Counted from the stretch's first letter, positions 3,571 to 47,291 are shown. The stretch is 64,000 bases of DNA from a virus (IMGVR_UViG_3300048837_000549:13112-77111); one strand, 5' to 3'. A program made the numbers and translations. The notes: generated from the sequence alone by a model not told the origin.

Positions 3571-4224
3571 ATGATAAGATATAAAAGTTATTTTGAAGAA
3601 GCAGTAATTGATCCGGATAAGTATTTACAGAATAATATAGATCCATTGCTACCTTCAGTTCAAAAGATTATACACAATTCTAGAAATACATGGGCTATCT
3701 GTAAAAAACTAAATTTAATATTTAGAAAGTATAATATATCTTTTAAAAACTTAAATCAAATGTCCCCAAACGGTATTCTGTATGGAGCAGCCGAAAATAA
3801 TAAAAAGAAATCAATTATAATTTTCTTATCCAATAATCTTATAAATACAAGAAATTCTACCGCATTTAAATATTTTTTTATAGAATTAAAATCTAAGATA
3901 AGCCACGAACTTATTCATAGATATCAATTTATAAGGATGGATAATTTGAAATTAAATCAAATGCCTACATACAAAAATGAAAAAGAATATTTAGCTGATA
4001 AACAAGAAATAATGGCGAATGCTTTTAATTCTATAGAATATTTTCGTTTTATGGGGATAGAGGATAATCAACTTAAAGGGTTCTTAAAAAATAAAAATCC
4101 TTTATTAAAAAGTTGTGTATGGTATAAAAAATATTTAGAATTATTTACTAATGAGGATAAGGAGTTGAAATTATATTATAAGTATCTATATATGTATCTA
4201 GATAATCAGGCACAATCAATATGA
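3571..4224 (+). CDS. HExxH metallopeptidase-like protein with capsid-targeting-like N-terminus
   Basis: MIRYKSYFEE N-terminus; SHELIHRYQ and downstream EIMANA; paralog of 4688..5401. Confidence 0.55.
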   Translation: MIRYKSYFEEAVIDPDKYLQNNIDPLLPSVQKIIHNSRNTWAICKKLNLIFRKYNISFKNLNQMSPNGILYGAAENNKKKSIIIFLSNNLINTRNSTAFKYFFIELKSKISHELIHRYQFIRMDNLKLNQMPTYKNEKEYLADKQEIMANAFNSIEYFRFMGIEDNQLKGFLKNKNPLLKSCVWYKKYLELFTNEDKELKLYYKYLYMYLDNQAQSI

Positions 4225-4676
4225 AATATAAATTACAAGAAGTTGAAACCTCAGAATTTTCATTTAATCCTCTCCACGACTATGGTTTAGATAAACCTTG
4301 GCAATCAGCTGGTCAAGTTCTTATGTCTGACTTAGGTTTGGAAAAATTTGGTAATAATGTTTTTATTCAGAAAGTACTCGGAGTTGGTCTTCCAATTTAT
4401 GTTATCACCTACAACAGCAGATACCCTAGAGTCGGATTAACAGCGACAAGAGTTAAGAAATTAAAGTTTACTTGGATTGGAAAATCTAAAAGAAAAGGTA
4501 TCCATACTTATATCAAACCCATGAAGTTAACTCCACCCTTATGTTTACAATCAGCTATGGTTACTATGACTTCGGGGAGTTTAGTTGTACAAAGAGATAT
4601 AGCCGGCGAGTACTTAAGGAATCCAAAAGTATTTGGTTACACTGATTACATATTAGATAAAAAGATAAACCAATAG
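4221..4676 (+). CDS. hypothetical protein, short MKY..LQE N-terminus
   Basis: ATGA overlap with the upstream gene. Confidence 0.55.
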   Translation: MKYKLQEVETSEFSFNPLHDYGLDKPWQSAGQVLMSDLGLEKFGNNVFIQKVLGVGLPIYVITYNSRYPRVGLTATRVKKLKFTWIGKSKRKGIHTYIKPMKLTPPLCLQSAMVTMTSGSLVVQRDIAGEYLRNPKVFGYTDYILDKKINQ

Positions 4677-4687
4677 GCAGTAAAATA

Positions 4688-5401
4688 ATGATTAAGAGAT
4701 ATCAACAATTCTTTGATGTAGATAGTATAAGATTTCTTGGACCTACACACAACATGTTCGAAATGGTTCAACGCCCAGAAAATTATTATACTATTATTAA
4801 AGAAAAAATTGAAGTTTTTCGTAATAGAAATATATTTGAATCTTTAGATGATCTTATAATTTCTTTAAACTCTTATTTTATTGATGAAAAAATTATATTT
4901 ATTTCATCTAAGACAAAAATGAAGTTCGATAGTGGTTTAACTTCGGCAGGATACAATCCAAAAACAAATGAACTTTATTTATTTTATAATTCGGATATTA
5001 GTAATGCTTTTAAAATGGAAAATAAGGAGCAGGACATCTATGATTATAAATGGTTTTTAGAGGATTTAGAAGGATTTATAGGACATGAAATTATACATAG
5101 AATGCAATACTTTAAAGACAAAATTAAAGATGTAGGAGTAATGTCGAAAGAAAATAGAAAAAAGTATTTAGCAAAACCCAAAGAAATTATGGCTTATGCT
5201 TGGCAAATAGTTCAAACTTTTAAATTAAACGGTAAAGATGATGATTTTATAAAGTTTGTTTTAGGATCGAAAAGAGATTTAGAGAATGTTAAAATAATAA
5301 ATTTTATTCCTATGTTAGCTGAATACTATAACACTTTTGATAAGGATTCCAATACTATGAAGTTATTATATAAGTATATCTATCAATATGTAGATAAGTA
5401 G
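4688..5401 (+). CDS. HExxH metallopeptidase-like protein with capsid-targeting-like N-terminus
   Basis: MIKRYQQFF; GHEIIHRMQ and EIMAYA; paralog of 3571..4224. Confidence 0.55.
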   Translation: MIKRYQQFFDVDSIRFLGPTHNMFEMVQRPENYYTIIKEKIEVFRNRNIFESLDDLIISLNSYFIDEKIIFISSKTKMKFDSGLTSAGYNPKTNELYLFYNSDISNAFKMENKEQDIYDYKWFLEDLEGFIGHEIIHRMQYFKDKIKDVGVMSKENRKKYLAKPKEIMAYAWQIVQTFKLNGKDDDFIKFVLGSKRDLENVKIINFIPMLAEYYNTFDKDSNTMKLLYKYIYQYVDK

Positions 5402-5406
5402 GTCAA

Positions 5407-5547
5407 ATGAAATTATGTAAATGTGGTAAAGAACTCATATTTAAAGGCGGATATTGTATAGTGGGTATGAGTATAGTTAAATATGAATGCTATGAGTGTG
5501 GTAATAAAGTAGAAACAATGAAAATTAAAATCTATAAACAGGTATAA
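5407..5547 (+). CDS. small zinc-ribbon protein (46 aa)
   Basis: Hand-translated MKLCKCG...ECYECG. Confidence 0.45.
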   Translation: MKLCKCGKELIFKGGYCIVGMSIVKYECYECGNKVETMKIKIYKQV

Positions 5548-5549
5548 AA

Positions 5550-5975
5550 ATGAAAAGATACAAAAGATTTGAGGAATCAACTAAAATTATAAATTGTAAA
5601 ATTGGTTCTAAAATTTACGAAATAGATTTAATTGAGAATATAAAAGAGTATAAAGATTTATTTGGAACTAATCTAACTCAGATCAATAAAGTTTTTGGTA
5701 AGCAACTAAAACAAAAAGGTGGACCAGATAAAGCCGAATATTCATTTTCAGGTATTATAGATATTACTATAGAGGGTTTACTATCTACAGCTTATCAATT
5801 AACTGGGGATAAAATATTTAAAGATTTAAATGAACTAATACAAACCATTTTTGGAAAAGTTGAAGGATCATTTGATTATTGGGTAGATGTAGAAGATTAT
5901 CTAAATACTGACATTGATATTGATTTTACATTTCTATATAATCAAGAATTAAAAATAAAAATTGATATAAGGTAA
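5550..5975 (+). CDS. putative internal head protein (MKRY family)
   Basis: MKRYKRFEES N-terminus. Confidence 0.5.
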   Translation: MKRYKRFEESTKIINCKIGSKIYEIDLIENIKEYKDLFGTNLTQINKVFGKQLKQKGGPDKAEYSFSGIIDITIEGLLSTAYQLTGDKIFKDLNELIQTIFGKVEGSFDYWVDVEDYLNTDIDIDFTFLYNQELKIKIDIR

Positions 5976-5979
5976 TATT

Positions 5980-6210
5980 GTGAAAAGATACAAAGAATTT
6001 TTTAGAGAAGATTGTACATTAGAAGAACAAGAAGAAGGTACTTGCGCGCTTCCTGAAGAATGTCCAACTCCTCAACAGAATGGTCCTAGTGGTTATTGTA
6101 AGAGAATTAATGATGGAGCTAAACTATTAGGTAAATGTCAAGATGGTTATATTTGGGATGACAAAACAAATAAATGTATTATAGCTCCTAAAAAATCAAA
6201 TGCCAAGTAA
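5980..6210 (+). CDS. Cys-rich putative internal head protein (MKRY family)
   Basis: GTG start, MKRYKEFFRED, six Cys. Confidence 0.5.
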   Translation: MKRYKEFFREDCTLEEQEEGTCALPEECPTPQQNGPSGYCKRINDGAKLLGKCQDGYIWDDKTNKCIIAPKKSNAK

Positions 6211-7096
6211 ATCAGAACAACAACGAAAATATATCTATTACCTTAGAAGTCAAGACGAGGACAAATCTAAGTGGTTCTGGGATAAAGATTGGGAACAAAT
6301 AGAGGAAACTAAAATGGAGAGATATACACCTTATTTCGAAGATATAATTATACCTCTCTCGAAGGGAGATACTTTCCTCTACGGGAAATTTAAAAATAAA
6401 CAGGCTATATATGCAAGTCATTACTTTAATGATAAGGGAGATCTGATTATAGTAACTGATCAGAAAAAAGAAATTCCGGCTTGTAAGATAAGATTAGTAC
6501 AAGAGCAATTAGAAGAGAATCTTCGTCTAAGTGACTTAAAAAAACACGCAGGTATAAGTAATTTTACCAAACCTTTTATGAAAGATAGACAAAGAATAAA
6601 AGGTACTGGAGCAAGATCAGCTAAGATAAAATCGATTAAAGTTAATAGAAAGAAAGACTATATAACATTCACTTTTACAAGTGAACCTACATATACAAAA
6701 ACAGCTTTTGCAGTTAAATTTCCAGATGTTGAAGATAAGAAAAAAGTAAGATTATATACTCAAGAAATCCGTATTCTTGACTTCTTTAAGTGGGCGGAAA
6801 CAAAACCGGGATATATTGAAAAAGAAATGACGCCGAAAGAAATTAAAGAAATATTAAATGTGGCAGATGTTAAACTAGCTTGTAACTGTTTTTCATTTCA
6901 GTTCCAGGGGTTTAATCATATACTTACAACTTTCGATGCTGCAATATATCCAGAATTAAGACCACCTAAGAAATGGAATAAATACCACAATGATGATAGC
7001 TTCACCTGTAAGCATCTGGATCTACTCATTTCGTCTGGACTTAATATTTATATAAACAACATGACTATGATGGTTAACAAGTACATAAAGAAATGA
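6200..7096 (+). CDS. SWIM zinc-finger protein; second in-frame start at 6314 (MERYTPYFE)
   Basis: CNC...CKH SWIM motif; AGAGG SD before ATG 6314. Confidence 0.6.
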   Translation: MPSKSEQQRKYIYYLRSQDEDKSKWFWDKDWEQIEETKMERYTPYFEDIIIPLSKGDTFLYGKFKNKQAIYASHYFNDKGDLIIVTDQKKEIPACKIRLVQEQLEENLRLSDLKKHAGISNFTKPFMKDRQRIKGTGARSAKIKSIKVNRKKDYITFTFTSEPTYTKTAFAVKFPDVEDKKKVRLYTQEIRILDFFKWAETKPGYIEKEMTPKEIKEILNVADVKLACNCFSFQFQGFNHILTTFDAAIYPELRPPKKWNKYHNDDSFTCKHLDLLISSGLNIYINNMTMMVNKYIKK

Positions 7097-7249
7097 AAGA
7101 CTTACTAAATAAAGAGTATGAAAAGCTTAAATTGATTACAAAAGATTATGTCATCTCTGTAGATCAACTTGATGAGTACCATGAAATACAGAATAGAATA
7201 AAAGAGTTGAGATTACTAGTAGGTACTAATCAATAAGGAGAATATTATT

Positions 7250-8485
7250 TTGAAAGTTCTTATTTGTGGTGACAGTTTTAAAAATATAACGGGGCTTAAC
7301 GAAGTATCATTTAATATAATCAAGTATTTTTATAATAAGGGATATGAAGTTGGCTACTGTGTTATTTCAGGAGAATCTTGTAAACCAGACGATTTAAAAA
7401 AATTAGGTAATAACCTATATGAATATTTCTTCGACACACCCTTATTTAATTGTCAAAAAGAGCAATCTAATTTTGATACTGCAATACAATTATTCAAACC
7501 TGATATAGTATTCTCTGCTCATGATTTATGGAAACTTGAAAAAATAATGTTATCAGATTATCGATCAACTTATAAATGGATTGCATACTGTCCTATTGAA
7601 AGTGATTACTATTCAGACCATATTGTATTGCCCGATAAAAATAGTTTTAGAAAATCACTACCCGAAATAGTTAATAATATTGATTTAATAATACCATATA
7701 CAGATATGGGCAAACGGGTATTACAAAAATTAGGGGCTACAAATATAACTGAAAAAGTATTTAATGGTATTGAAGATATATATATTGAGTCTGTGAATCG
7801 TCAAGAAGTATTTAAAGGATTAGTTAAAGATTCAGATTTTATATTTATGACAAATACAACCAATTTCCAAAGAAAAGGTCTCGCATATATTATTGAAGCC
7901 TTTAACTCATTTGTAAATCAACTTGACAATAGGGAAAATTATAAACTATATATACATGGTCAAATTGACACCATAGATCAAGGAACTGATATTAAATCTA
8001 TGGTTATTGATTTGGAGTTAAGTAATAATGTTATTTATTCTAAAAATGAACAAATATCAAAAAGAGAATTATATAAACGATATAGATGTTGCGATTGTTA
8101 TATTGGACTACCATTAGCCGAAGGATTTGGATTACCTTTTGCTGAAGCTATGATAAATAAATTACCTATCATAAGTTCGGGATTTGGTGGGCATATTGAA
8201 TATTTGCAACAAACATATGAAGTTGGATATGTAAGTTATTTTTACCCCAACAATCAATACACTTTATGGAAGATTCCCCAAGTGGATGAAGCTGTTTGTG
8301 GAATGTTTTATTATACTAACAATTTAACTAATATAAAAGAAAGAACAAAAGAAAATTATAACTATGCAAAAGAAAATCTTACATGGGATAAAGTGTATAA
8401 AAGATTTGACGAAATATTAAAACCTTTTCTTGATATTTATATTCAATCGATAGATAATAAGTTAACATTAAGGAGAATAATTTGA
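7250..8485 (+). CDS. glycosyltransferase, GT4/GT-B family
   Basis: RKG and EGFGLPFAEAM motifs. Confidence 0.88.
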   Translation: MKVLICGDSFKNITGLNEVSFNIIKYFYNKGYEVGYCVISGESCKPDDLKKLGNNLYEYFFDTPLFNCQKEQSNFDTAIQLFKPDIVFSAHDLWKLEKIMLSDYRSTYKWIAYCPIESDYYSDHIVLPDKNSFRKSLPEIVNNIDLIIPYTDMGKRVLQKLGATNITEKVFNGIEDIYIESVNRQEVFKGLVKDSDFIFMTNTTNFQRKGLAYIIEAFNSFVNQLDNRENYKLYIHGQIDTIDQGTDIKSMVIDLELSNNVIYSKNEQISKRELYKRYRCCDCYIGLPLAEGFGLPFAEAMINKLPIISSGFGGHIEYLQQTYEVGYVSYFYPNNQYTLWKIPQVDEAVCGMFYYTNNLTNIKERTKENYNYAKENLTWDKVYKRFDEILKPFLDIYIQSIDNKLTLRRII

Positions 8486-9612
8486 AATTATTATATATAG
8501 CCCCTTTATCGACTGATAAACAAACCTCAAGTGGTTATACAAATGCTAGTGATGGGATGCTCAAAGTTTATAATAGAATGAAAAATGAAGGTGTATTTAG
8601 TGTTGTAGATACTATTTCTAATCCCTATAGTTTTGATATACCTAAAGATAGCTATGATATATGTTTAGTTAATCTTAATATAGGATTATTATTAAAGAAA
8701 GAAGAAACATTAGCACTTTATTATAATTTAAAAACTAAATGTAAGAAAATGTATTTAAGCATAGTTTGGGAAGCGACCCCATATCCCGAATTTTGGAATA
8801 AATTATTTAAAGAGTATAACATATTTGATGGATATCTTTTTCCGTCCAAATTTTGTAAGAATCTTTTATATGACATAAAAAAACCAAAATATTACTATCC
8901 TCATTTTATAGATTCAACCATATTTTTTCCTTGCGATAGAGAAATAAAAGAAAATGAAAATATATTTACAGTTTTAATGACGGGTCAATTAACCGAAAGA
9001 AAGGGATTTAGGGAAGGCATAATTGCATTTTCTCAAGAGCTTGGAGATATAAAAGATTGCAGACTTATAATAAAATCAAATAGGATGAGTAAATATGAGG
9101 AAAGTATTGAAAGTCAAATAGAAAGATACTCTTTAATGAATGGGTTAACTGAAGCACAGATATTTACAATAACGGATACGAATTTAACTCAACAAGAAAT
9201 GATTGATCTTTATCATTCAAGTTCAGTAGTACTTTTACCATCAAAAGGAGAAGGTTTTGGATTAAATTTACCTGAAGCAATGTCTTGTGGTATACCTTGT
9301 ATATATGCTAAAAATTCTGCTTGGGAAGATGCGAAATATGCTTCATGGAGTAATTATCCTTTGTCTTATATTCCTAAAGGAGTTGAATCTATGATACATT
9401 ATGGGTATTCTGTTAATATGGTATGGAGTGATGTTTCTATTTTAGATATAAAATATGCTCTTAAATATTTTTATAATAAATGGGTTAATCATAGAGAGAA
9501 TTATTATGCTTATATTGAAGAGGATAATTTGAAAATATCTAATCTCTATGGATATGATGTAATAAAACAATGTATACTAGATATAATAGAAGAAAAGGAG
9601 AGGGTTCAATGA
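8482..9612 (+). CDS. glycosyltransferase, GT4/GT-B family
   Basis: ERKG and PSKGEGFGLNLPEAMSCG motifs. Confidence 0.88.
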   Translation: MKLLYIAPLSTDKQTSSGYTNASDGMLKVYNRMKNEGVFSVVDTISNPYSFDIPKDSYDICLVNLNIGLLLKKEETLALYYNLKTKCKKMYLSIVWEATPYPEFWNKLFKEYNIFDGYLFPSKFCKNLLYDIKKPKYYYPHFIDSTIFFPCDREIKENENIFTVLMTGQLTERKGFREGIIAFSQELGDIKDCRLIIKSNRMSKYEESIESQIERYSLMNGLTEAQIFTITDTNLTQQEMIDLYHSSSVVLLPSKGEGFGLNLPEAMSCGIPCIYAKNSAWEDAKYASWSNYPLSYIPKGVESMIHYGYSVNMVWSDVSILDIKYALKYFYNKWVNHRENYYAYIEEDNLKISNLYGYDVIKQCILDIIEEKERVQ

Positions 9613-10772
9613 TATATGTAATCGGAGATTCACACGCTTTAAGATTTAAAGATAAAATGTTTGTAACTAAGGAAATAGTTTATGCTACGGCTCATAATTT
9701 AATCGAGGAGAATTCTACATCAAAAGGAAGAGAAAAAACTTTAGAATATTTAGAAACAATAGATAAAAAAGAAAAGATTCTATTTGCTTTTGGGGAAATA
9801 GATTGTAGAAGTCATATTATAAAAAAACATCCTGACGAACCTTTCAAGGGGGTGGTTGAGACAGTAGATAGATATTTTCAATTTATTTTAGAAGTATGGA
9901 AAAAAGGTTGGAAAAACTTGGTTATATTCGCCCCTATCGCTTCAACTCCTTGGACATTTGATTCAGGGGAATTTCCTACTATAGGATCGGTACGAGATAG
10001 GAATTATGTGACTTATATGTTTGGCAAATATTTAGAAGATAAATGTAATAAACATAATTTAATGTTTGTTTCTATCTATGAGGATTTGATTAAATTACCT
10101 TTTATTCCTAATCCCGAATGCTATCAAGATGATCATATCCATATTAAACCAGAAGTACAAGTTGAATTCTTTAAAAATAAATATAGAGAAAAACATATAC
10201 CTTTTAAATATGGTGGTAGAAATAGAAAAGTTTCTTTTAATAAAGTTCTTAATCATTTAGATAATATTGAAAATCCTATTATGGTGGAAATTGGTCAAAC
10301 TAGAAATTATTATAACTGGAATGGTGACGGTTATTCAACTCCTTTATTCTCATGGTATATAAGTCAAAGGCCCGACGGACAATTTTACTCGATTGATATT
10401 TCTGATAATTCAAAAATATATGAAGGTATATTTGGAATATGGGGTATAAGAAAAGATAGAATAAATATATTACAACAAGATGGAATTAAATTTTTACAAG
10501 AATTTGAAAACAAAATTGACTTTCTTTATCTTGACGCATGGGATTATCATAAGACTAATATAGAAATGCAAACTATTTCAGAAACAATGCATTTGGAAGC
10601 CTTTAAAATTGCTGAGCTAAAATTAAATGAAAATGCTTTAATTTTGATAGATGATATTCTAGATCAAGAAACTCTTATAGGTAAAGGTAAACTACTAATA
10701 CCCTATATGATAGATAATGGGTATGAACTTATACATAAAGGTTATCAGTTTCTATTTAAAAAAATAAAATAA
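9609..10772 (+). CDS. SGNH/GDSL hydrolase-like domain fused to class I SAM methyltransferase
   Basis: IGDSHA, GEIDCR and DHIH (SGNH); VEIG...IDFLYLDAWD...LIDD (methyltransferase); ATG 9609 overlaps the upstream stop. Confidence 0.7.
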   Translation: MIYVIGDSHALRFKDKMFVTKEIVYATAHNLIEENSTSKGREKTLEYLETIDKKEKILFAFGEIDCRSHIIKKHPDEPFKGVVETVDRYFQFILEVWKKGWKNLVIFAPIASTPWTFDSGEFPTIGSVRDRNYVTYMFGKYLEDKCNKHNLMFVSIYEDLIKLPFIPNPECYQDDHIHIKPEVQVEFFKNKYREKHIPFKYGGRNRKVSFNKVLNHLDNIENPIMVEIGQTRNYYNWNGDGYSTPLFSWYISQRPDGQFYSIDISDNSKIYEGIFGIWGIRKDRINILQQDGIKFLQEFENKIDFLYLDAWDYHKTNIEMQTISETMHLEAFKIAELKLNENALILIDDILDQETLIGKGKLLIPYMIDNGYELIHKGYQFLFKKIK

Positions 10773-10782
10773 GGAGATTGCT

Positions 10783-11043
10783 ATGAAACAATCAGATTCA
10801 ATTAAAATATTTGATAAGTTAAATAAAGTAATTAATGGCTCGAAAAGTATAGTAGAAAACATCAATAATAGTTCTTCAATAAATCATGAGAAAGCTATTA
10901 AAGCTTCTATGCTCAATTCTATTCTTATTGCCGAAGCTTTGAAAGATATACTGAGAGATATAGTTGTTTTGGATAAAAATCCAAACTCTAAAATGGATTT
11001 ACCTGAGGGATTTGAGGAATTATTCGGGGGATTTAGAAAATGA
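10783..11043 (+). CDS. hypothetical protein
   Basis: AGGAG SD; overlaps the next start. Confidence 0.55.
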   Translation: MKQSDSIKIFDKLNKVINGSKSIVENINNSSSINHEKAIKASMLNSILIAEALKDILRDIVVLDKNPNSKMDLPEGFEELFGGFRK

Positions 11044-11771
11044 GTAAAACATACGTAACAATGACAGCTATTCAAAATAGATTTATGAATTTTGAACAAA
11101 CTATTCCCCTACTCGCTGATAACGCTGACAAAGTATTTATAAAAATTTGTGGTACACTTGAGTACCCAAAAATACTAGATTCATATAGTAATATAGAAGT
11201 GGAAGTATCTGAGGATAGACTTGGATCGGAGGAAAAATTTCATGGATTCAAAAAAGTAAAAGAAGATGGGTATGTTTTTACTTGCGATGACGACATCCTG
11301 TACACCTCCACATATTTTAAAATTATGAAACAAGCCATAGATAGATATGATAAACAATGTGGAGTATCTCTTCATGCAGGGTTTATAGATTTTAAAGTGA
11401 TTCAAGCCAATTATTACAAACATCGCAGAATGTTCTCAATGTATCATCCCCTAGATAAAGATGTTCAAGTTAATGCTATCTTCTCTGTTACAGCAGCATA
11501 TCATACTTCTACATTTAAAATAACACCTGAAGATTGTCCTATACATCAAATGGATGACGCTTATGCTACGGTAGAACTTTCTAAAAGAGATTTAAAAATA
11601 ATATCTCCCGCAAGACCTGAAGGTATGATTAAACAATTACAAGTAGGTGGATACGCCATTCATGCCAATAAAGGAGGCTCTGGCGGACACCCCGTGGAAA
11701 GCATAGATAAGTTGTTTAATGATAACAAAGAAATGTTAATAGCTTATCAAGAAAGACATACAGGAATTTAA
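11040..11771 (+). CDS. glycosyltransferase, GT-A fold
   Basis: YVFTCDDDILY DxD motif; MDD motif downstream. Confidence 0.75.
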   Translation: MSKTYVTMTAIQNRFMNFEQTIPLLADNADKVFIKICGTLEYPKILDSYSNIEVEVSEDRLGSEEKFHGFKKVKEDGYVFTCDDDILYTSTYFKIMKQAIDRYDKQCGVSLHAGFIDFKVIQANYYKHRRMFSMYHPLDKDVQVNAIFSVTAAYHTSTFKITPEDCPIHQMDDAYATVELSKRDLKIISPARPEGMIKQLQVGGYAIHANKGGSGGHPVESIDKLFNDNKEMLIAYQERHTGI

Positions 11772-11773
11772 AT

Positions 11774-12439
11774 ATGAGAATACTTTACACAAGTTTATTT
11801 CCAAGACTTCCTTATAAACAACATGAACAAGAGAATTTAGAATTTTTTATGGATTCAGTCAAATATCATAATTATAATAATTTTAAATATATAATAGCTT
11901 CTGCTCATTCATTTATGTTAAAAAATTCTTATGATTATTTTTTAGATACTGATTTTACATATAATGAAAAAATGAATGAAGAAAGAGGGCATGAAATATC
12001 TTTTTCAAAACAAAAATTATTTCAATTATCAAATGAAATAATGAAAGAGCAAGAAATAGATTACCTTTTCTATATAGATTCTGACATGATGATAGATAGT
12101 AAAGATGTAGTTGAGTTATGTAAAGCTCTAGAATATAAAGAAAATACTTTTGTAAATATACCTTATGTTCTTAGAGATCTTAAAAAAGTATCTAATTCTA
12201 GTTTTGGTTGTTATATTATACCCTTTAAAATTTTAAAAGAAAATCCTGATTTATATGAAGTAATATATAGAACTAAAATAGTGGATGATCAGATATGTAG
12301 AATAGGGGCTCCAGATTGTAATATAAGGGAAGAACTTATACGAAGAGGTTATAAAGAGTTAAATGCTCATAATATAAATACTAGACATTATATAGACAAT
12401 GAAAATTTTCTTGAATACGATAATGGAGTAATAAAATAA
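11774..12439 (+). CDS. putative glycosyltransferase, GT-A fold
   Basis: DYLFYIDSDMM DxD; FGCYII; context. Confidence 0.6.
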   Translation: MRILYTSLFPRLPYKQHEQENLEFFMDSVKYHNYNNFKYIIASAHSFMLKNSYDYFLDTDFTYNEKMNEERGHEISFSKQKLFQLSNEIMKEQEIDYLFYIDSDMMIDSKDVVELCKALEYKENTFVNIPYVLRDLKKVSNSSFGCYIIPFKILKENPDLYEVIYRTKIVDDQICRIGAPDCNIREELIRRGYKELNAHNINTRHYIDNENFLEYDNGVIK

Positions 12440-12455
12440 TTTTAAAATTTAATTT

Positions 12456-12464
12456 TACTAATAA
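12456..12464 (+). promoter_or_regulatory. putative late promoter TACTAATAA
   Basis: Recurrent motif upstream of a virion gene. Confidence 0.6.
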
Positions 12465-12528
12465 ATAAATAAGTGGTATTCGGGAATTATATATTCCTTA
12501 AAATTTAGTACCATAGAGGTAAATTAGC

Positions 12529-12804
12529 ATGGAAAAAACATGGAGAAAGAGTTCAGTACACATTACTGATACTGCCGTTACCGCAGATGCTTCTGCAAAC
12601 CAAAAAGATATTGTAGTATCTACAAACACCCCAACAGATGACTTCGTTTATAATATTAACATTAAACGAGCAAGAGTAGATGTAACTAACAATGCAATTC
12701 ACTTTTATAACCCTAATTCAGGTACAGTTGTTATAAGAGATAACAGTACTGATTACGTTATTACTGCTGGAGATGTTATTACAATTTCTGGAACATATCT
12801 ATAA
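12529..12804 (+). CDS. small virion protein
   Basis: Thr/Val-rich beta-type sequence; late motif upstream. Confidence 0.45.
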   Translation: MEKTWRKSSVHITDTAVTADASANQKDIVVSTNTPTDDFVYNINIKRARVDVTNNAIHFYNPNSGTVVIRDNSTDYVITAGDVITISGTYL

Positions 12805-12824
12805 TTGTTATAGTTATTAACTGC

Positions 12825-12862
12825 TAAGAGCCTATGTAGAAATACATAGGTTCTTTAATTTT
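12825..12862 (+). terminator. intrinsic terminator
   Basis: AAGAGCCTATGTA-GAAA-TACATAGGTTCTT then T-rich. Confidence 0.7.
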
Positions 12863-12873
12863 AATTTACTTTT

Positions 12874-12882
12874 TACTAATAA
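12874..12882 (+). promoter_or_regulatory. putative late promoter TACTAATAA
   Basis: Directly after the terminator, before 12921. Confidence 0.6.
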
Positions 12883-12920
12883 TTAAAATAGGAAACAATT
12901 CTTAAATGAGGAATATATAA

Positions 12921-13301
12921 ATGAAAAATAAAACTTTTACAATAAGTAAGGCACAGCTAGATACAAATGCCAATGTGATAATAGATACTTGTCTTGATAT
13001 TAACGATGTTAGCCCGTCTGGGGCTACTGAATCTAGAAGATATTACCCAAGAAAAATAAATTTTCTTAATACTTCTGGTGTTGCAGTAAAAGCTAATATA
13101 TTTAGTTCAGATGCTGAAATAGCTACATATACTGCAGATCCAACTAATTATGATTTTTTTACAATTCTATCAGGTACAAGCTTAATACTAACTTCTTCAG
13201 TACTTCTCCCAACTGCTTATAAAATATATGTCATACTACCTACGGGGGTAGCAACATCCGGAATGTCAATCGAATGTATTGGCTATCAACCTTATAGATA
13301 A
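12921..13301 (+). CDS. virion protein, paralog of 21605..21985
   Basis: Both 126 aa; MKNKTFTI / MINKRFEI and RRYYP / RYLYP align. Confidence 0.5.
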   Translation: MKNKTFTISKAQLDTNANVIIDTCLDINDVSPSGATESRRYYPRKINFLNTSGVAVKANIFSSDAEIATYTADPTNYDFFTILSGTSLILTSSVLLPTAYKIYVILPTGVATSGMSIECIGYQPYR

Positions 13302-22125: not shown

Positions 22126-22134
22126 TACTAATAA
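22126..22134 (+). promoter_or_regulatory. putative late promoter TACTAATAA
   Basis: Upstream of MKRY gene 22165. Confidence 0.6.
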
Positions 22135-22164: not shown

Positions 22165-22470
22165 ATGAAAAGATATGAATTTAAAAAGCCTACTGATTTA
22201 AGCATACTTGAAGAATCAAGATTAAAAGAAGCTAGTTTTATGGTTAACAATATTGCTTCAGCAGAAAATAGTCTGATAGGAGTAATAGGAATTATAAATA
22301 AAATTAAAAGACAACCAACGGCGGCTGCTAATATCCTAGGTCAAGCTCTGATTACTGGTATTGATTCTATGGACCCAGATATAGAAGATGACAGATTAAA
22401 AACAGCTAGAAAACAACTTGTAATTAAAACTTTAATAAAATATCTTATTTCTTACAGAAAATCCCTATAA
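22165..22470 (+). CDS. putative internal head protein (MKRY family)
   Basis: MKRYEF...ILEES..LKEA; similar to the C-terminal part of 28692..29483. Confidence 0.5.
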   Translation: MKRYEFKKPTDLSILEESRLKEASFMVNNIASAENSLIGVIGIINKIKRQPTAAANILGQALITGIDSMDPDIEDDRLKTARKQLVIKTLIKYLISYRKSL

Positions 22471-28413: not shown

Positions 28414-28695
28414 ATGCAAAGATATATTTCACATTTTAAAGAAGATTTTAATTTAGATAATTTAATTGAACAATATAAATTAAAGGAATCTGGAAATAAT
28501 ATTGCAGCAACTTCAATGGAGTCTTTTTATAATATGGTTAACATGTATAAAGAACTAGAAAGAACTCATGAAAGTAAAAATAAAAGAAAGTTACTTAAAA
28601 CACTCAAAAGATTGCTCACTGATTTTGTTACAATGGATTCATTATTAGCAAAAGAGTTTAACTATAAAGGAATAGCAGGTACACACTACAGATGA
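28414..28695 (+). CDS. putative internal head protein (MKRY family)
   Basis: MQRYISHFKED; GGTG SD before ATG 28414. Confidence 0.5.
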   Translation: MQRYISHFKEDFNLDNLIEQYKLKESGNNIAATSMESFYNMVNMYKELERTHESKNKRKLLKTLKRLLTDFVTMDSLLAKEFNYKGIAGTHYR

Positions 28696-29483: not shown

Positions 29484-29489
29484 ATATCT

Positions 29490-29849
29490 ATGAACAAATA
29501 TATGAGATTATCAGATGATATAGATAATGATGGTATTAGTGAAGAAGATAAGCTAAAAGCAGAACAAGCTAAAGCTGATGAAATTGAAGCTAATGACCTG
29601 ATAGAGCAACTTCAAACTCAAACATTTAGAAATAGAGAAATGAGAATTGAATTTGCTAAAATCATTCTACAACTTGCATCTAACAATAATCCAAGAGCAA
29701 AGAAACTGGTATATAAAATGTCAGAGTTTGCTAAGTACTGGGAAAATGATGAAATGATAGATGAAGAAGAATGGAGAAAACTAAATAACACTCAAGATAT
29801 GATTGAGAGTGTTCAGATTAAAAAATATAAAAGTAAATTTAGTTACTAA
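29490..29849 (+). CDS. putative prohead core/internal protein
   Basis: Acidic helical; ends IKKYKSKFSY; near the protease gene. Confidence 0.4.
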   Translation: MNKYMRLSDDIDNDGISEEDKLKAEQAKADEIEANDLIEQLQTQTFRNREMRIEFAKIILQLASNNNPRAKKLVYKMSEFAKYWENDEMIDEEEWRKLNNTQDMIESVQIKKYKSKFSY

Positions 29850-29873
29850 TAGTATATTGAGGTTGTTATAAAT

Positions 29874-30070
29874 ATGAAAAGATACAGGAGATATGAAGAA
29901 TCAGTGTTTAAATTTAAACTTTCTGATTTCGGTATTAAAGATTTAGTTGAATTAACACATTTTATTGATGATTTAAAAAAAATAATATAAAATGGGATCA
30001 GTTAAAACCAGGCACATTTTTATTTTCTAATGAAAATGATTTTAATAAAGCAAAAGATTTGCTAAAATAA
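29874..30070 (+). pseudogene. MKRY-family gene broken at an A8 run (stop at 29990; the -1 frame runs to 30070)
   Basis: MKRYRRYEES; TACTAATAG and GAGG upstream. Confidence 0.5.
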
Positions 30071-30082
30071 GAGGTAATTAAA

Positions 30083-30421
30083 ATGAAAAGATATAAAAGA
30101 AAATTTGAAGAAGCCTTTCCTCCTAATAATGTTTCTTGGAATGTATATGTAATATTTTCTAAACTTCCTAATTTACTAAAAGATTTAACTTCTGAAATAG
30201 GTAATATGTCTTCAGTATTTTTTGAAAGTGATGCCAAAGGTGCTAGAGGAAAAGCTACTATGGAAGAAGATTATAAAGGGAAACTAATTGTATTTAACTC
30301 TGCTAAAAATAAATATTTAGAAGTTTTAATAGATACTAAAAATCCCTCAAGTACTAAATGGATCAGGTCAGTATCAGGAGATTCATTAAAAAATATAGCA
30401 TTAGAGTTAAACACAAAATAA
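30083..30421 (+). CDS. putative internal head protein (MKRY family)
   Basis: MKRYKRKFEEA; GAGGT SD. Confidence 0.5.
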   Translation: MKRYKRKFEEAFPPNNVSWNVYVIFSKLPNLLKDLTSEIGNMSSVFFESDAKGARGKATMEEDYKGKLIVFNSAKNKYLEVLIDTKNPSSTKWIRSVSGDSLKNIALELNTK

Positions 30422-32704: not shown

Positions 32705-34153
32705 ATGAAACACGGAAGACAAAAAATGAGCGAGTCTCAAATGAAAGAGATAGTTCAACAAGAATGGGCATCTAAATCTAGAATCGGAGAAGCATGTGTA
32801 GCAAAATGGTCTAAGATGGATTTAGTTGGAAAAGAAATGCTTGAAAAATACGCTGAGAATCCTGCTAAGATTCGTAAAGCAGCTATTATGCTTGAAAATC
32901 AAGAAAAAGTTCTAAAACAGATTATGAAAGAGAATCTTTATTCTACTACTTTTGGAACATCTGTAAAACCTGAGCATATGCTTAAAGCAATATTCCTTGG
33001 AGCTGCTAACTCAAAGAGGGGAGATATATTCACAGAATATCCACTTACTTCTACTGATGACGCATTATTCTACATTCAATCAGTTTATGAGAGCACTGTT
33101 CGTGGAGCAACTGCAGGAGCTAGATCTTATGAGAGCATGTCTCCTTACTACTCTGGAGAACAATATTTTGGCTCAGTAGGAACAGGTAACGGAGCACTTA
33201 CAGCATTCGTTTCTGCGCCTATGGCTTATCTACCACTTATTCCTTTTAAGACTGTAATCACTTTAGGTGGAGCTCAAATAGCTGTTGATAATGGTTCTGG
33301 AGTTCTTGTAGGTTCACTTCTTAATCCAGCACTTACTAACACAGTTAACTATGCTACAGGTGTTATTACTCTTAATTTTCTTGTAGCACCTGCTAATTTA
33401 GCTCCTATTACTTGTGTATACAATTGGAACTCAGAAGATGCAACTAACTATACCAATTATGGTACTATGAGCCTTGAACTTGTGAAAGCTAGATTCAACG
33501 CACGTCCTATGCCTCTTGGATATAGAATTTCAGATATGACTCAGATTATGTTTGAGACAACTGGTCTTGGAGATGCTAAAGACTATATGGCACAAGCAGT
33601 TGGTCAAGAACATGCAAGAGCAAAAGATTATAGAGCGATTGCACAAGCAAGACGTGTAGCACTTGGAAACGCAGTAGCAACATTTGATACAGACTTCGCA
33701 GCAGCTGGTGAAATCAGTTATAAGTCACACGCTCAAAGAGTACTTACAGAGATTGAAAGAGTTGGAGCAGTTATATATGACGATCTAAAGAGAGGTGGTA
33801 TTACTGATATCGTTGCAGGAGCAAAAGCAACCGCATATCTTAAAAATCATGATCTTTGGAAAGACGTTTCAGGAGATGCTAAGAATGGAGTTTATCAAGC
33901 TGGTACACTTTCAGACATGAAAGTATTTACTTGTCCAGCAGATGCAGCTCTTGTAGCAACTAACGAAATGCTTCTTGTATATAAGAACCCACAAGAGTCC
34001 ATGGATGTAAGTATATTATTCGGAACTCTTGCAGAAATCGACGCTAGTTTAAGATATCCAAATTTTGTAACTGAGGGAAATTCCTGTGTAATTGAGGACA
34101 GCCGTGTCGTGAACGGAAAATTCATTCGGTTAATGCAACTACAGTCTCTTTAA
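32705..34153 (+). CDS. major capsid protein (T4 gp23-like)
   Basis: KW...AIMLENQ N-terminus like gp23; position after protease/scaffold; biased codon usage. Confidence 0.85.
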   Translation: MKHGRQKMSESQMKEIVQQEWASKSRIGEACVAKWSKMDLVGKEMLEKYAENPAKIRKAAIMLENQEKVLKQIMKENLYSTTFGTSVKPEHMLKAIFLGAANSKRGDIFTEYPLTSTDDALFYIQSVYESTVRGATAGARSYESMSPYYSGEQYFGSVGTGNGALTAFVSAPMAYLPLIPFKTVITLGGAQIAVDNGSGVLVGSLLNPALTNTVNYATGVITLNFLVAPANLAPITCVYNWNSEDATNYTNYGTMSLELVKARFNARPMPLGYRISDMTQIMFETTGLGDAKDYMAQAVGQEHARAKDYRAIAQARRVALGNAVATFDTDFAAAGEISYKSHAQRVLTEIERVGAVIYDDLKRGGITDIVAGAKATAYLKNHDLWKDVSGDAKNGVYQAGTLSDMKVFTCPADAALVATNEMLLVYKNPQESMDVSILFGTLAEIDASLRYPNFVTEGNSCVIEDSRVVNGKFIRLMQLQSL

Positions 34154-37981: not shown

Positions 37982-38506
37982 TTATTCAACTTCAATACAA
38001 TATGCTATACCACTATCCCAAAGTTCCCCTTCATGATAAGTAACAGTGACATTTTCGTTCAGTTTAATTGTTTGAATTTCATTAGCACTATAACCTATTT
38101 CTTTTTGAACTAATTTCATTATATAAGAATGTAAATAGCTCTCTACAATAATTCTAATGTCCCCTGATTTAGTATGAAAATCTTTAAAGTTTTTCTTAAT
38201 AGGGGGAAGAGTTACAATAATAGCATGATTATTTTTATCTCCCCTGTTCTGATTATCTCTTCTCCATTCGAGTATAACACATATACCAGTTGATTTAGAC
38301 CATATACCATATGTAGTATCTTCATCTTTATAATTATCTACGATCTTTTTCATACCATTATTTATAACAGTAATGACTTGATCCTTATCTAAATTTATGA
38401 ATCTAGTTTTATCAATTAGTCTCTCAATGGAGTGAGCAGTATCTATAATTTTTCTGCCTTTGTATCCTAGTATACTTGCTTCTTTGTACCGCTCATACTT
38501 TCTCAT
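37982..38506 (-). CDS. MKRY-family protein, possible BECR/RelE-like RNase; paralog of 41588..42112
   Basis: MRKYERYKEA; DTAHSIER; SK..G....EWR.D. Confidence 0.45.
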   Translation of the reverse strand: MRKYERYKEASILGYKGRKIIDTAHSIERLIDKTRFINLDKDQVITVINNGMKKIVDNYKDEDTTYGIWSKSTGICVILEWRRDNQNRGDKNNHAIIVTLPPIKKNFKDFHTKSGDIRIIVESYLHSYIMKLVQKEIGYSANEIQTIKLNENVTVTYHEGELWDSGIAYCIEVE

Positions 38507-39495: not shown

Positions 39496-40683
39496 TTAGT
39501 TCAATTCTACCAAATATTTTATTGTACACTGTTCAGATTTATAAATCATTTGTTCATTGTTTATGAGATCAGCCCCTCCTTGAGCAAATACAGAATCATA
39601 CTCCCCTAATTCTTTTAACTTTTTAAAACTTAATTGATACATCCATGATTCATGTTTTTTTATTCTATATTCCCTTCCAGTATTAACTTCATATAATGCC
39701 ATAAATCCCTGTTTAGAATTTCCTTTTGCCCAATAGCTTCCTGATAGACTTGTATAACCCAATGCTTTCTTACATTTATCCGCCATATAGATTGCATCAC
39801 CAAACATTGATCCAGTATGCACTGCTCCAGTAGGTCTTATCAATAAACTCGTTTTCAATATGTTTAACCAGTTTTCATTTCTACTACCATGCCACATTAA
39901 CTTAGTCCAGTGTTTAACTGATTCTTTTCTCTGCTTTTCAAATTTATCTCTTGATACTTTATGAGTAACTTCAAATAGATTTTTAAATTTACCTGATTCA
40001 GTTCCCATCATTTCTTTTACTTTATCAATTTCTGTTTTATCTGTTACTTTTGAAATTTTAACTCCAAGTATATCCTCTAAAGTTTTATCTGAATCTGTTG
40101 ATGCCGAATTGATACTTACCTGTCCTTTCATTATGTCTATTGCATCCTGTTCTCTTTCAAGTATTGCTTTTCCTTTTGCCTTATCTCCAGTTCCGTTAAG
40201 AATAAAGTCTTGAACTTTTTTCATTTTTCTTGGTATAACTGTATAGAGTTCTGTAAGCTTATTATCAATTGAGGGATTAGATATTGTTTTCTTCTTTAGC
40301 ATATCTGCTATTTCATTTAGAATCTCTTGAGCTTTATCTATTTGAGCCTCAGTAACCTGTTCTGCTGAAACTGTATAATTCTCTAATATAGAAGCTTTTG
40401 AGTAGCTCTGTAAATCAGAGAGTAATTTCATTATAGTAGAATCTGTTATGTCTTTAAGAGTAGTAGTTGTAATAGTAGATTTAAGACTTGTAATGTCTCT
40501 ATATCCTTTTTTAATTTTCTCAGCATACTTCTTATCCCATTGTGACATTGGATAACTTACAGTAATTTCAGTAAGTCCAACTCTACCATATTTAACTATG
40601 AAGTTATTTCCATCTTCTGTCATTCTGTAGAACTTATTATTATTCTCTGCTGTACACATTATCAATTCAACTTGCTTTGCCAT
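39496..40683 (-). CDS. WGR-domain poly(ADP-ribose) polymerase
   Basis: NNNKFY...YGRVG (WGR); LYTVIPR regulatory domain; WHGSR...GSMFGDAIY.A..KALGY...NNEQMIY. Confidence 0.9.
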   Translation of the reverse strand: MAKQVELIMCTAENNNKFYRMTEDGNNFIVKYGRVGLTEITVSYPMSQWDKKYAEKIKKGYRDITSLKSTITTTTLKDITDSTIMKLLSDLQSYSKASILENYTVSAEQVTEAQIDKAQEILNEIADMLKKKTISNPSIDNKLTELYTVIPRKMKKVQDFILNGTGDKAKGKAILEREQDAIDIMKGQVSINSASTDSDKTLEDILGVKISKVTDKTEIDKVKEMMGTESGKFKNLFEVTHKVSRDKFEKQRKESVKHWTKLMWHGSRNENWLNILKTSLLIRPTGAVHTGSMFGDAIYMADKCKKALGYTSLSGSYWAKGNSKQGFMALYEVNTGREYRIKKHESWMYQLSFKKLKELGEYDSVFAQGGADLINNEQMIYKSEQCTIKYLVELN

Positions 40684-41587: not shown

Positions 41588-42112
41588 TTATAGTTCTATC
41601 ATCTCAAAATTATAGCTTATCTCTCCTGACTGTATATATAGATCAAATCCACATATATCCATTTCTTTCTGAGTCTCCTCTGTAAATCCATATCTATAGT
41701 AACCATTATTTACTCTGTCTAATGCTTTCTCTTTTGATTCTTCGAAGTAGAGTTGTTCGAGAAATAATTCTTTATCTCCTTTAGTGAAAAATTCCATTTC
41801 ATTATTAGAAAATGAAGTAGCACTATAACCATTAAATTGTTTTGTAACTCTATCCTTTCTCCATTCTACTTGTATACCAAATCCATATTTCTTAGAGACA
41901 AAAATATATCTATCTTCAACATTTTCTTTGTTATTGTTTACAATCCAGTTTATTCCTTTTTTAAGAAGTTTCATATAAAGGAATATATCCTTACCAACTC
42001 TCTCTTTATATCTAGATACTGAGTGTTCAGTATCATAGACATTATAACCTTGATAATCGTGTAAAATTTCTTTAAAGTATTCTTCGAATTTATGTGGTTC
42101 ATATCGTTTCAT
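41588..42112 (-). CDS. MKRY-family protein, possible BECR/RelE-like RNase; paralog of 37982..38506
   Basis: MKRYEPHKFEE; DTEHSVSRYKER; own AACTAATAA motif at 42130-42138. Confidence 0.45.
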   Translation of the reverse strand: MKRYEPHKFEEYFKEILHDYQGYNVYDTEHSVSRYKERVGKDIFLYMKLLKKGINWIVNNNKENVEDRYIFVSKKYGFGIQVEWRKDRVTKQFNGYSATSFSNNEMEFFTKGDKELFLEQLYFEESKEKALDRVNNGYYRYGFTEETQKEMDICGFDLYIQSGEISYNFEMIEL

Positions 42113-45057: not shown

Positions 45058-45420
45058 ATGTCGGTAAATATGAGATTTGAAATAGTTGGAAATAAAGTAG
45101 TGAGTGACCAATACACTGATGAAACATTATCAGTAATAGGAAAAATAGAAAAAGAATTTACTGGTATTGTAGTTGGGGACGGTTGGTTAAATATCCCTAT
45201 AGCTAAAATAGGTACTATATCAAAAATAATAGTTAATGCAACTACTGCTAATTTAAGAATTACTTATACAGATGGTGGAAGTCAAACTATGATACTACCC
45301 ATCAGTGGATTATTTGTATATAGTGTATTAGCTTCATTTTCTGCTTTGATTACAGCTATAGATATATCAACAGATAGTACTCAAGTTGTAGATGCCGTTG
45401 TCTCTATATATGGGGTATAA
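45058..45420 (+). CDS. small virion protein
   Basis: Beta-rich; GAGGT SD. Confidence 0.45.
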   Translation: MSVNMRFEIVGNKVVSDQYTDETLSVIGKIEKEFTGIVVGDGWLNIPIAKIGTISKIIVNATTANLRITYTDGGSQTMILPISGLFVYSVLASFSALITAIDISTDSTQVVDAVVSIYGV

Positions 45421-45540
45421 ATGTTAATTGATAAGATAACATACCCATTTTATTATATTTATTTTTCAATAGCTACTAGGCAAAGAAATTTGAAAATTAT
45501 AGAAAACCAAGTTTATCTGAAATTTATACGGAGCTAATAA

Positions 45541-45774
45541 ATGAAAATATTAAAGTTGATTAAAGAATATCTTACTACTATACTTACTATTATATTTGTG
45601 GTAGCAATATTCATAGGTATAGTAGTAGCTGTAATATATCTCAGAGGTACAAATAAAAAAATTCAAATAGTCCCTGAGTTTAAAGTTATAGATGCAAAAG
45701 TTGATCCTAATCTAGATGCATTAAGTGAGTCAGTTGAGATAGCAAAAAATATATTAAAGAAGGTGAACAAATGA
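45541..45774 (+). CDS. membrane protein
   Basis: One long hydrophobic helix. Confidence 0.5.
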   Translation: MKILKLIKEYLTTILTIIFVVAIFIGIVVAVIYLRGTNKKIQIVPEFKVIDAKVDPNLDALSESVEIAKNILKKVNK

Positions 45775-46197
45775 AAAGATATAAAAGTTACTTTAAGGAA
45801 AGTAATTATAAATTTAATACTAAAACAACTGGTATGTCTCTATATGATGATATAATGAAAAAACCTGAATATCATCAATACTACAAAGGGTTGATTTACA
45901 CTATTGAACAGATGTCTCCTCAAGAGTATATGAATAAAACTAAAAACTCTACAAGTAGTAATCCATTAGCCGGTGTTGATATAAATAAAGTAGATAAGTA
46001 TGTAGATCAAATATCTAAAGGTAAAAAGTTTGATATGCCTGTTTTAGAATATGATACGGATGGCTGGGTTGAACATGAAGGTAGACATAGAGCATTAGCT
46101 ATGGATAATTAGGGGTAAATAAAATAGATGTTATGGTAGTTAAAAGAGTTAAAAAAGATATTGAAAAATGGTATGATATAGCGGGGAAAAGTATATA
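45771..46197 (+). pseudogene. ParB/Srx-like MKRY-family protein with a frameshift near 46108
   Basis: MKRYKSYFKES; MSPQEY..PVL..EGRHRALA; the alternative frame continues LGVNKIDVMVV to a stop abutting the next ATG. Confidence 0.55.
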
Positions 46198-46500
46198 ATG
46201 AAAAGATATAAATTTAAAGAGAATGATGACGACTATTACTCTATAGATAATACAAAAGAAAATAGAGATATGTTTATAAGAATGATAGCAGAAGACTACG
46301 CTGATTGGATGGCTACTGCTCATGATGCTTATGTTAATCAGGAACACTCTCATGAATTTACAAAAGGATTATTTATGAAGAGTGCAATGGGGATAGCTAA
46401 AGCCGCATCTAAAAGAAATAAAACTGTCGACGATCTTCATGAGTATAGGGAGGATATGCTATCACGCATATTTAGATTGAAGAAGAAATTAGGTATATAA
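46198..46500 (+). CDS. putative internal head protein (MKRY family)
   Basis: MKRYKFKEN. Confidence 0.5.
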   Translation: MKRYKFKENDDDYYSIDNTKENRDMFIRMIAEDYADWMATAHDAYVNQEHSHEFTKGLFMKSAMGIAKAASKRNKTVDDLHEYREDMLSRIFRLKKKLGI

Positions 46501-47250
46501 ATGAAAAGATACCAACCCTATTTTAATCATGGTAAATTATATGAGTGGACTTCAAGAGATAATAGTGAATATATCTTATTTGAGAAGTATACTAATTTAT
46601 TCTTACAGGGCAGACTTGATGAATTTAGCATACCTAAAGCTATTAAAGATAAATTTGAATTTATAAAAGAGTTATCTGTGGAAACGGGCTTTAAGATTAA
46701 AGATTTATTTAAATTATTTCTTAATAAATATGTATTTAAATTCTTCACTCTTATAGGTTGGTCAATAACTAAACTCTTTAATATAGTTAAATCGGGATAT
46801 AAAGCTTACCAGGATTTACAAAAAGTAATAACAGAATATGTTCACTCGAATAAAGTGATACAATGGACTAAAAATGAATTAGAAAAGCTTGATACATTTT
46901 TAAGTAAGCATCCTAAGACAAGAAGAATTGTTGGGGTTGCGGTTGCGGTTGCGGGGCTTCTTATTTATATATGGTTAACAATGAGTTTTACAGGAGATGC
47001 TTTGGATGATTTTGACATAACTATGGTGTTTGCTTCTCTTACAGGGCATGCAACATTATCTGATGTATTTGGTACTCCAGCAGGAACTAAAATGTTGATG
47101 TTATTTGTAACGGGTGCTATTACTGGACTGGGTTTTCCTTGGGGAGGGAGTAGTTTATTTAAATTTAGTATAGCAGTTATTGTAAGTCTTGCAAAACTAT
47201 TTAAGCAAAAAATAAGTAAAGGTAATGATATATCACAGGTAAACGGATGA
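46501..47250 (+). CDS. MKRY-family protein with hydrophobic C-terminal helices
   Basis: MKRYQPYF; about three hydrophobic Gly/Ala-rich segments. Confidence 0.5.
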   Translation: MKRYQPYFNHGKLYEWTSRDNSEYILFEKYTNLFLQGRLDEFSIPKAIKDKFEFIKELSVETGFKIKDLFKLFLNKYVFKFFTLIGWSITKLFNIVKSGYKAYQDLQKVITEYVHSNKVIQWTKNELEKLDTFLSKHPKTRRIVGVAVAVAGLLIYIWLTMSFTGDALDDFDITMVFASLTGHATLSDVFGTPAGTKMLMLFVTGAITGLGFPWGGSSLFKFSIAVIVSLAKLFKQKISKGNDISQVNG

Positions 47251-47291
47251 AAAGGTATGAATCATATTCAATCGCAAATTATACTTATTAA
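47247..47291 (+). pseudogene. 14-codon MKRY stub
   Basis: AGGT SD, ATGA overlap, MKRYESYSIANYTY-stop. Confidence 0.45.

Follow-up and report, generated by a model that had tools for sequence, protein, structure and literature searches.

A short N-terminal peptide, M-(K)-(R)-Y-x-x-(F/Y)-x(1-3)-E (hereafter the tag), begins a large set of otherwise mostly dissimilar proteins encoded by the virus record IMGVR_UViG_3300048837_000549. We analysed a stretch of 64,000 nucleotides (nt) of this record (the window), bases 13112-77111 of 77,111 bp. From the sequence, we consider it likely that the tag is a capsid-targeting propeptide of the kind known from phage T4, where it is called the capsid-targeting sequence (CTS), in a greatly expanded code; packaging into the head and cleavage of the leader are predicted. 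The phage would then probably pack dozens of different proteins with its DNA. The record has a G+C content of about 30% and is about 50% complete by CheckV. Among its genes are those for a tail sheath and tail fibres, for a major capsid protein (32705-34153, +) and for a 660-amino-acid (aa) protein labelled 'head maturation protease' (30434-32416, +); given the sheath, fibre and capsid genes, the phage is therefore a myovirus.

An earlier note on this DNA had described about 20 tagged proteins. All 19 of the N-termini that it listed were recovered at their coordinates, and the set is real, but its size was underestimated: roughly 28-30 tagged genes are present on the contig, including ten upstream of the window (genome positions 3192-13199), and about a quarter of the contig's genes begin with the tag. 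Using a loose regular expression, the motif matched 22 of 121 called starts and 2 of 438 internal Met residues (Fisher p 8.9e-14), which bears out the observation in the earlier note. In all six frames, 25 of 2628 ATGs fitted the same loose pattern. The six-frame ATG and internal Met counts reject AT-rich start bias as the source of the motif. The tripeptide KRY was found five times in 22,217 non-N-terminal residues.

Among 23 tags, M1 and Y4 were invariant, K2 was present in 19 and R3 in 21, followed by K and then R/P. An aromatic residue was found at position 7 (F/Y, 15/23) or position 8 (F, 10/23), and a Glu, mostly at positions 9-11, was followed by S, D, A or E. The tagged proteins were more basic than the rest (median isoelectric point 8.8 versus 6.0; Mann-Whitney p 0.0017). 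The tag was missing from all sheath, tail-fibre, capsid and ligase genes, as the earlier note had said of the replication enzymes and tail proteins.

A conserved start of this sort might instead be a late-gene expression signal, acting through the mRNA (as a purine-rich start) or the nascent peptide and having no part in localisation. In many bacteria, initiation is helped by AAA as codon 2 and by A-richness at the start, and both the style of ribosome site (AGGTA) and a promoter-like motif described below are common to tagged and late genes. However, the tag is absent from structural late genes that have this promoter-like motif. Moreover, the conservation extends to residue 9-11, is by amino-acid class (aromatic, Glu, small/acidic) and tolerates variable spacing. 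Upstream of the ATG, the DNA shared by tagged genes is the ribosome site only. The codons of the invariant Tyr (TAT 15 : TAC 7) are no different from those of the genome (909:202), and in the relative G007, a 100-kb fragment with 27 MKRY starts (control 2), Arg is drawn from both codon boxes (AGA, AGG, CGT, CGA and CGG) and both Tyr codons are in use. Synonymous codons vary freely, and selection is therefore on the peptide rather than on the DNA. Since neither free codons nor class-level conservation is expected of an RNA signal, we rejected a nucleotide-level signal on the Tyr and Arg codon data, and consider the expression reading highly improbable.

The conserved positions of the tag can be compared with those that matter in T4, where ipII and ipIII (NC_000866) begin with MKTYQEFIAE, followed by A. 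Amber-suppression mutagenesis of the IPIII leader traced targeting mainly to residues 4 and 7, whereas residues 8 and 10 mattered for processing; Asp at position 10 blocks processing but leaves targeting intact (PMC9026906). Y4, the aromatic at 7/8 and the closing hydrophobic-x-Glu of the tag coincide with these determinants. One leader in the relative L015 reads MKTYKTKFVEE. The T4 internal proteins are basic, and the CTS has already been suggested as a means by which T4-like phages may package a variety of proteins (PMC9026906).

One tagged cluster ends at the gene for the 660-aa protein (30434-32416, +), which comprises an N-terminal domain of about 200 residues with the T4 gp21 fold, a long coiled coil and an Asp/Glu-rich tract; i.e. 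a prohead protease fused to a scaffold. In a full HMMER scan, the protease domain was found in 347 representative clusters (50% identity), nearly all of them similar fusions of 500-750 aa. His93 and Ser145 were invariant in an alignment of 49 homologues. With hhalign, the family profile matched T4 gp21 with 95.5% probability (E 1.3e-8, 165 columns), the T4 NHP and GVSSRG motifs aligning with ADHA and GFSTVA of the phage protease. An AlphaFold model made from the 49-sequence alignment had a pLDDT of 83; the alignment was needed, the single-sequence model reaching a pLDDT of 31. With the former as a query, the only significant Foldseek matches were chains A-C of 5JBL (T4 gp21; E about 1e-6, target-normalised TM 0.64), and the next match had an E of 0.17. 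Two other searches were uninformative: the output of a PDB profile search made from the full-length alignment was dominated by matches to the coiled coil of the scaffold, and phmmer run with the protein alone returned low-complexity matches only. The profile, fold and His/Ser evidence therefore identifies a protease of the gp21 kind. Such proteases, in T4 and in giant-phage relatives, cut after Glu in hydrophobic-x-Glu contexts (PMC9026906, PMC5694885).

We then counted the corresponding cut motif, [LIFMYV]-x-E followed by S/A/D/N/E/G, relative to the expectation from shuffled sequences. The scaffold part of the fusion contained 23 sites (9.6 ± 2.6 expected, p <0.0005) and residues 1-80 of the capsid protein contained 5 (0.95 expected, p 0.0005), whilst the rest of the capsid protein was not enriched (3 versus 2.3 expected). 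The cut-motif-rich first 80 residues therefore suggest a removable N-terminal domain of the capsid protein. The same distribution is known from T4, whose scaffold is digested and whose capsid protein loses its N-terminal domain.

These same data bear on the idea that the leader is recognised by some other enzyme or chaperone, such as a radical-SAM modifying enzyme, and is no capsid address. Peptide natural-product systems are known in which a shared leader serves a single enzyme, and the relative G002 encodes two radical-SAM-domain proteins. Against this, the tags cluster beside the protease-scaffold gene, and the end of the tag matches the protease cut motif of the scaffold and capsid protein. 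Furthermore, the 77-kb contig, with about 28 tagged genes, gave no match to PF04055, and neither of the G002 radical-SAM genes (63.8 and 124.9 kb) has tagged genes next to it. With no such gene on the contig and none near the G002 tags, we rejected this reading, which we regard as very unlikely.

The tagged operons also share a promoter-like motif with head and tail genes. TACTAATAA occurs 18 times in the window (3.3 ± 1.8 expected) and with its flanks reads TTTACTAATAA(T/A). It sits 13-100 nt 5' of capsid, sheath, fibre and other structural genes, and also 5' of the tagged operons at 3571, 22165 and 28414 and of three operons upstream of the window; one-mismatch versions precede the genes at 24323, 29874 and 42112. 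Because of the genes downstream of the motif, we infer that it may act as a late promoter. The perfect copies in front of tagged genes in the window are at 3489-3497 (+; late-type, 74 nt before the operon 3571-7096), 22126-22134 (+; 31 nt before the gene at 22165) and 28393-28401 (+; 13 nt before the cluster 28414-30421).

At the domain junction within the protease-scaffold gene there is a further copy of the motif, with an in-frame ATG 3' of it (31057-31100, +). The homologue consensus keeps the Thr-Asn specified by this copy. The arrangement suggests that a promoter nested in the gene yields a separate scaffold protein.

The earlier note had called the bodies behind the tags mostly unrelated. 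This holds for at least 25 families, but not throughout: there is one trio of HExxH proteins and one pair (37982-38506 and 41588-42112). BLAST and phmmer searches with residues 15 onward of 28 proteins (E<=1) linked only that trio and pair. Pfam and PHROGs searches with about 40 proteins, mostly tagged, gave DUF5661, a YunG-like match below threshold in one of the upstream genes, and a few other sub-threshold matches at chance level. Within the HExxH family, the tag Glu is directly followed by the conserved mature sequence, A-V-x-x-P-D-x-Y; in two paralogues, a spacer of about 14 residues separates the tag from a second hydrophobic-x-Glu site, which occupies the aligned position. In other phages, DUF5661 homologues often begin, untagged, at the GG(L/K)AD motif of the domain, and the closest relatives carry the tag just before that motif. 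The domain is found with and without the tag, which therefore behaves as an add-on module.

Could the tagged genes nonetheless be one fast-evolving paralogue family whose N-terminus is merely the slowest-changing part? Their tandem arrays and the paralogue trio and pair are what such a family might produce. However, the body searches revealed no further links at E<=1, the proteins range in length from 38 to 1245 aa, and the domains are distinct (DUF5661, YunG-like and HExxH). Based on the body searches and on the untagged occurrence of DUF5661 elsewhere, we rejected a single family as the most improbable of the explanations considered.

Four DUF5661 homologues from other metagenomic phages (P0167-P0170) begin with MKSLKEFLNE followed by S. 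This leader also fits the T4 CTS pattern, with a hydrophobic residue at 4, F at 7 and L-x-E at 8-10. Other lineages may use tag variants of their own.

The largest tagged protein (1245 aa, 24323-28060, +) has the weak tag MKYNESFFD and ends in an FHS...GAGIYFA pattern. A language-model lookup with its C-terminus returned PARP catalytic domains (score 0.91), which we treat as a lead only. The protein had no PDB sequence matches, and BLASTP against the phage's own PARP-like protein was not significant (E 0.37). Since the sequence tests were not significant, an ADP-ribosyltransferase (ART) domain in this protein is unconfirmed.

The tag extends to relatives of the phage. A relative with a complete genome, G002 (155.6 kb, with terminal repeats; capsid protein 85% identical), has about 20 tagged open reading frames (ORFs) out of 251, and the contig analysed here is richer (28-30 of about 120 genes). 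In six relatives (capsid protein 69-85% identity), tagged ORFs are located around the protease. Loci of more distant relatives were gathered with a tight protease alignment; locus searches with two distant single protease proteins gave no loci. Where protease identity was 38-53%, the fractions of tagged ORFs upstream of the protease were 8/18 (L015), 3/3 (L017), 6/18 (L018), 4/15 (L019) and 12/19 (L022), with 0-4 matches in the internal-Met controls. The consensus differs by lineage, e.g. MKRYKS(L/I)(F/L)KE in L022 and M-x-YKSKF(V/I)E in L015 and L018, with the Tyr and the closing Glu kept. Drift of this kind would be expected if the tag co-evolved with a receptor particular to each lineage, such as the scaffold.

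Within the same mechanism there is a live alternative: that the tag does direct proteins to the prohead, but that most tagged proteins are core or DNA-condensing parts, degraded or retained as inert counter-ions, rather than effectors. The T4 core proteins gp67 and gp68 are encoded beside gene 21 and are cut by gp21 (PMC9026906). Many of the tagged proteins are small and basic, the acidic tagged gene 28962-29483 is kept directly beside the protease in relatives, and no cargo matched a known anti-defence family in Pfam or PHROGs. Against this, at least 25 unrelated bodies would be many for a structural role, the repertoire varies between close relatives in a manner resembling an arms race, and the cargo includes three HExxH proteins and the possible ART-like end of the 1245-aa protein. 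On this evidence we think a mainly structural cargo rather unlikely.

Several observations weigh against the interpretation of the tag as a capsid-targeting propeptide. In some leaders no Glu is suitably placed (46501) or the last residue is Asp (4688 and 24323). As a motif, hydrophobic-x-Glu is short and the proteome is rich in Glu; the cut motif is enriched in the protease domain itself too (10 versus 3.3 expected). The tagged gene 37982-38506 is without TACTAATAA, and both it and 41588-42112 share a minus-strand block with genes for ligase and PARP-like proteins. The still more distant relatives L021 and L023 (protease 34-43%) had no such tags nearby. No cultured relative was found: tblastn with the protease domain against phage records and megablast with 24 kb of the phage against 50,697 phage records returned no matches, and the capsid protein gave weak matches only, to unrelated large phages. 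Finally, a quarter of a contig's genes serving as head cargo would be far above any characterised phage known to us.

Nevertheless, the earlier proposal of a T4-like capsid-targeting propeptide, cut after hydrophobic-x-Glu, drew support from the protease fold, the cut motif, the shared regulation, the clustering and the T4 positions, with the packaging and cleavage themselves remaining predictions. The second idea in that note, a kit of injected anti-defence or host-takeover proteins, drew no support, Pfam and PHROGs having put names to almost none of the cargo. We suggest that the tag and protease form a module that works like, and is probably homologous to, T4 CTS/gp21. In this model, tagged proteins would be made late in infection, alongside the head proteins. 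The tag, chiefly through Tyr4 and the aromatic at 7/8, would bind the scaffolding core formed from the C-terminal part of the protease-scaffold, and the capsid shell would close round this core. The activated gp21-type serine protease would then digest the scaffold, remove the capsid N-terminal domain and cut the tags after Glu. The mature bodies, many of them small and basic, would remain in the head with the DNA, and most would be ejected with the genome into the next host cell. Scaffold binding, cleavage, packaging, ejection and a role in the host are all steps that we infer. More tentatively, and with some doubt on our part, an uncultured clade of AT-rich myoviruses (about 155 kb) may use the T4 peptide as a general address code for an injected proteome that would include zincin-like proteases and a possible ADP-ribosyltransferase.

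Turning to the individual tagged genes, the left edge of the window holds the 3' end of a 54-aa tagged gene (1-88, +; MLLQRYQPYKFTE/A, where the slash marks the predicted cut) that starts 76 nt before the window. The first complete operon (3571-7096, +) opens with a tagged HExxH (zincin-like) protein, MIRYKSYFEE/A (3571-4224, +), in which M1, Y4 and E10 are invariant in orthologues. A weakly tagged protein, MKYKLQE/V (4221-4676, +), is followed by a tagged HExxH paralogue (4688-5401, +) in which MIKRYQQFFD and a 14-aa spacer precede a second site, MFE/M, aligned with the tag end of the 3571 protein. The remaining members are MKRYKRFEE/S (5550-5975, +), a Cys-rich 76-aa protein with a GTG start, (M)KRYKEFFRE/D (5980-6210, +), and MERYTPYFE/D (6314-7096, +). 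The last begins at an in-frame ATG within a longer ORF (6200-7096), and this start is backed by its own AGAGGAA-type ribosome site and by a 261-aa orthologue in G002. Three consecutive genes encoding proteins of 376-411 aa, two with TTG starts, lie 3' of this operon (7250-10772, +) and are candidate sugar-modifying enzymes.

A further tagged gene, MKRYEF...SILE/E (22165-22470, +), has a longer leader of 16 aa. The cluster that runs up to the protease begins with MQRYISHFKE/D (28414-28695, +) and MKRYKPFKE/D, the latter with the DUF5661 body (28692-29483, +). Within this second gene is an in-frame second tag at 28962 (MKRYEPKFKVKE/A) with its own AGAGGAA-type ribosome site, and in G002 the two halves of the gene are separate adjacent genes. 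Internal initiation or protease cutting of 28692-29483 would either way give two mature proteins. There follow a protein with the degenerate tag MNKYMRLSDD (29490-29849, +), a tagged 38-aa ORF, MKRYRRYEE/S, with TACTAATAG 5' of its start (29874-29990, +), and MKRYKRKFEE/A (30083-30421, +), directly 5' of the protease gene.

On the minus strand are the two paralogues, MRKYERYKE/A (37982-38506, -) and MKRYEPHKFE/E (41588-42112, -), the latter with AACTAATAA 5' of its start. A last group comprises MKRYKSYFKE/S (45771-46112, +), MKRYKFKE/N (46198-46500, +) and MKRYQPYF... (46501-47250, +), whose first Glu is at residue 15, in LYE. A 14-aa ORF, MKRYESY... (47247-47291, +), is probably a tag vestige or a chance match.

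Other genes in the minus-strand blocks encode an ATP-dependent DNA ligase (PF01068; 36673-37962, -), an RNA ligase (PF09414; 52746-54053, -) and the PARP-like protein (39496-40683, -). The PARP-like protein has WGR, PARP regulatory and PARP catalytic domains (Pfam PARP E 1e-21), a eukaryote-style architecture that is unusual for a phage. Two adjacent ORFs (55258-56523, -), one starting ...INKAYKFRIYPN, resemble a split TnpB/IS605 OrfB-type gene, by N-terminal motif only. A homing-endonuclease-like gene (PHROG 3339, E 2e-26; 59222-60439, +) separates the sheath gene from the tail genes that follow.

If the proposed targeting is correct, the whole injected proteome, and with it a pool of candidates for host takeover and anti-defence, could be read from sequence, and the tag could be reused for loading foreign proteins. 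If the tag works as in T4, it would supply a list of delivered proteins for a whole uncultured clade, which is large judging by the 347 protease clusters. The T4 'load then clip' strategy would also be older and wider than the T4 family, and would be able to handle cargo of dozens of types. Natural variation in the tag between lineages provides data from which its recognition could be worked out.

Among known systems, head and ejection propeptides of the giant phages phiKZ, 201phi2-1 and SPN3US are cut at (S/A/G)-x-Glu by gp21-like proteases (PMC5694885, PMC10052503). As proposed here, many internal head proteins of these phages are processed after Glu by a gp21-related protease, and the propeptides are thought to target the prohead. 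However, their propeptides are mostly long (up to >100 residues) with no short consensus tag, the P3 residue is small rather than aromatic/hydrophobic, and in SPN3US only 8 processed proteins were found. In phage P1, an N-terminal signal of <=30 residues of DarB suffices to load a foreign protein, and the cargo counters restriction (PMC9024508). The Dar proteins differ in having no common consensus and no gp21-type cleavage, and few cargo proteins are known (PMC9024508). Encapsulin cargo-loading peptides are likewise short and portable and bring unrelated cargo inside an HK97-fold shell, but the peptide is usually C-terminal and uncleaved, and the shell is a cellular compartment rather than a virion (PMC8346489).

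T4 CTS/gp21 is alike in several respects. Both have a leader of about 10 residues with an M-K-x-Y start, an aromatic at 7 and a hydrophobic-x-Glu end followed by a small residue; both have a Ser/His protease of the gp21 fold, with a scaffold and capsid N-terminus rich in the same motif; and in both the cargo is basic, with unrelated bodies. The consensus differs, being MKRYK(R/P)F.E here and MKTYQEFIAE in T4, and the protease is here fused to the scaffold in one gene. The phage as a whole is also not T4-like by BLAST: when 14 T4 head and tail proteins were compared by tblastn with the contig and G002, only the sheath gp18 and a short stretch of wac matched at E<0.01, and in BLASTP the capsid protein did not match T4 gp23 significantly (E 1.2) despite a common ENQEK stretch. 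With only the sheath T4-like among the 14 proteins, we therefore do not file the phage as T4-like in this BLAST-level comparison. T4 has three internal proteins (plus Alt and core proteins), whereas about 28-30 tagged genes are found here on half a genome. The two systems differ, too, in experimental footing, the tag system described here being known from sequence alone. The principle is known from T4; scale and lineage differ here, and what we describe is an extension of that principle rather than a new one.

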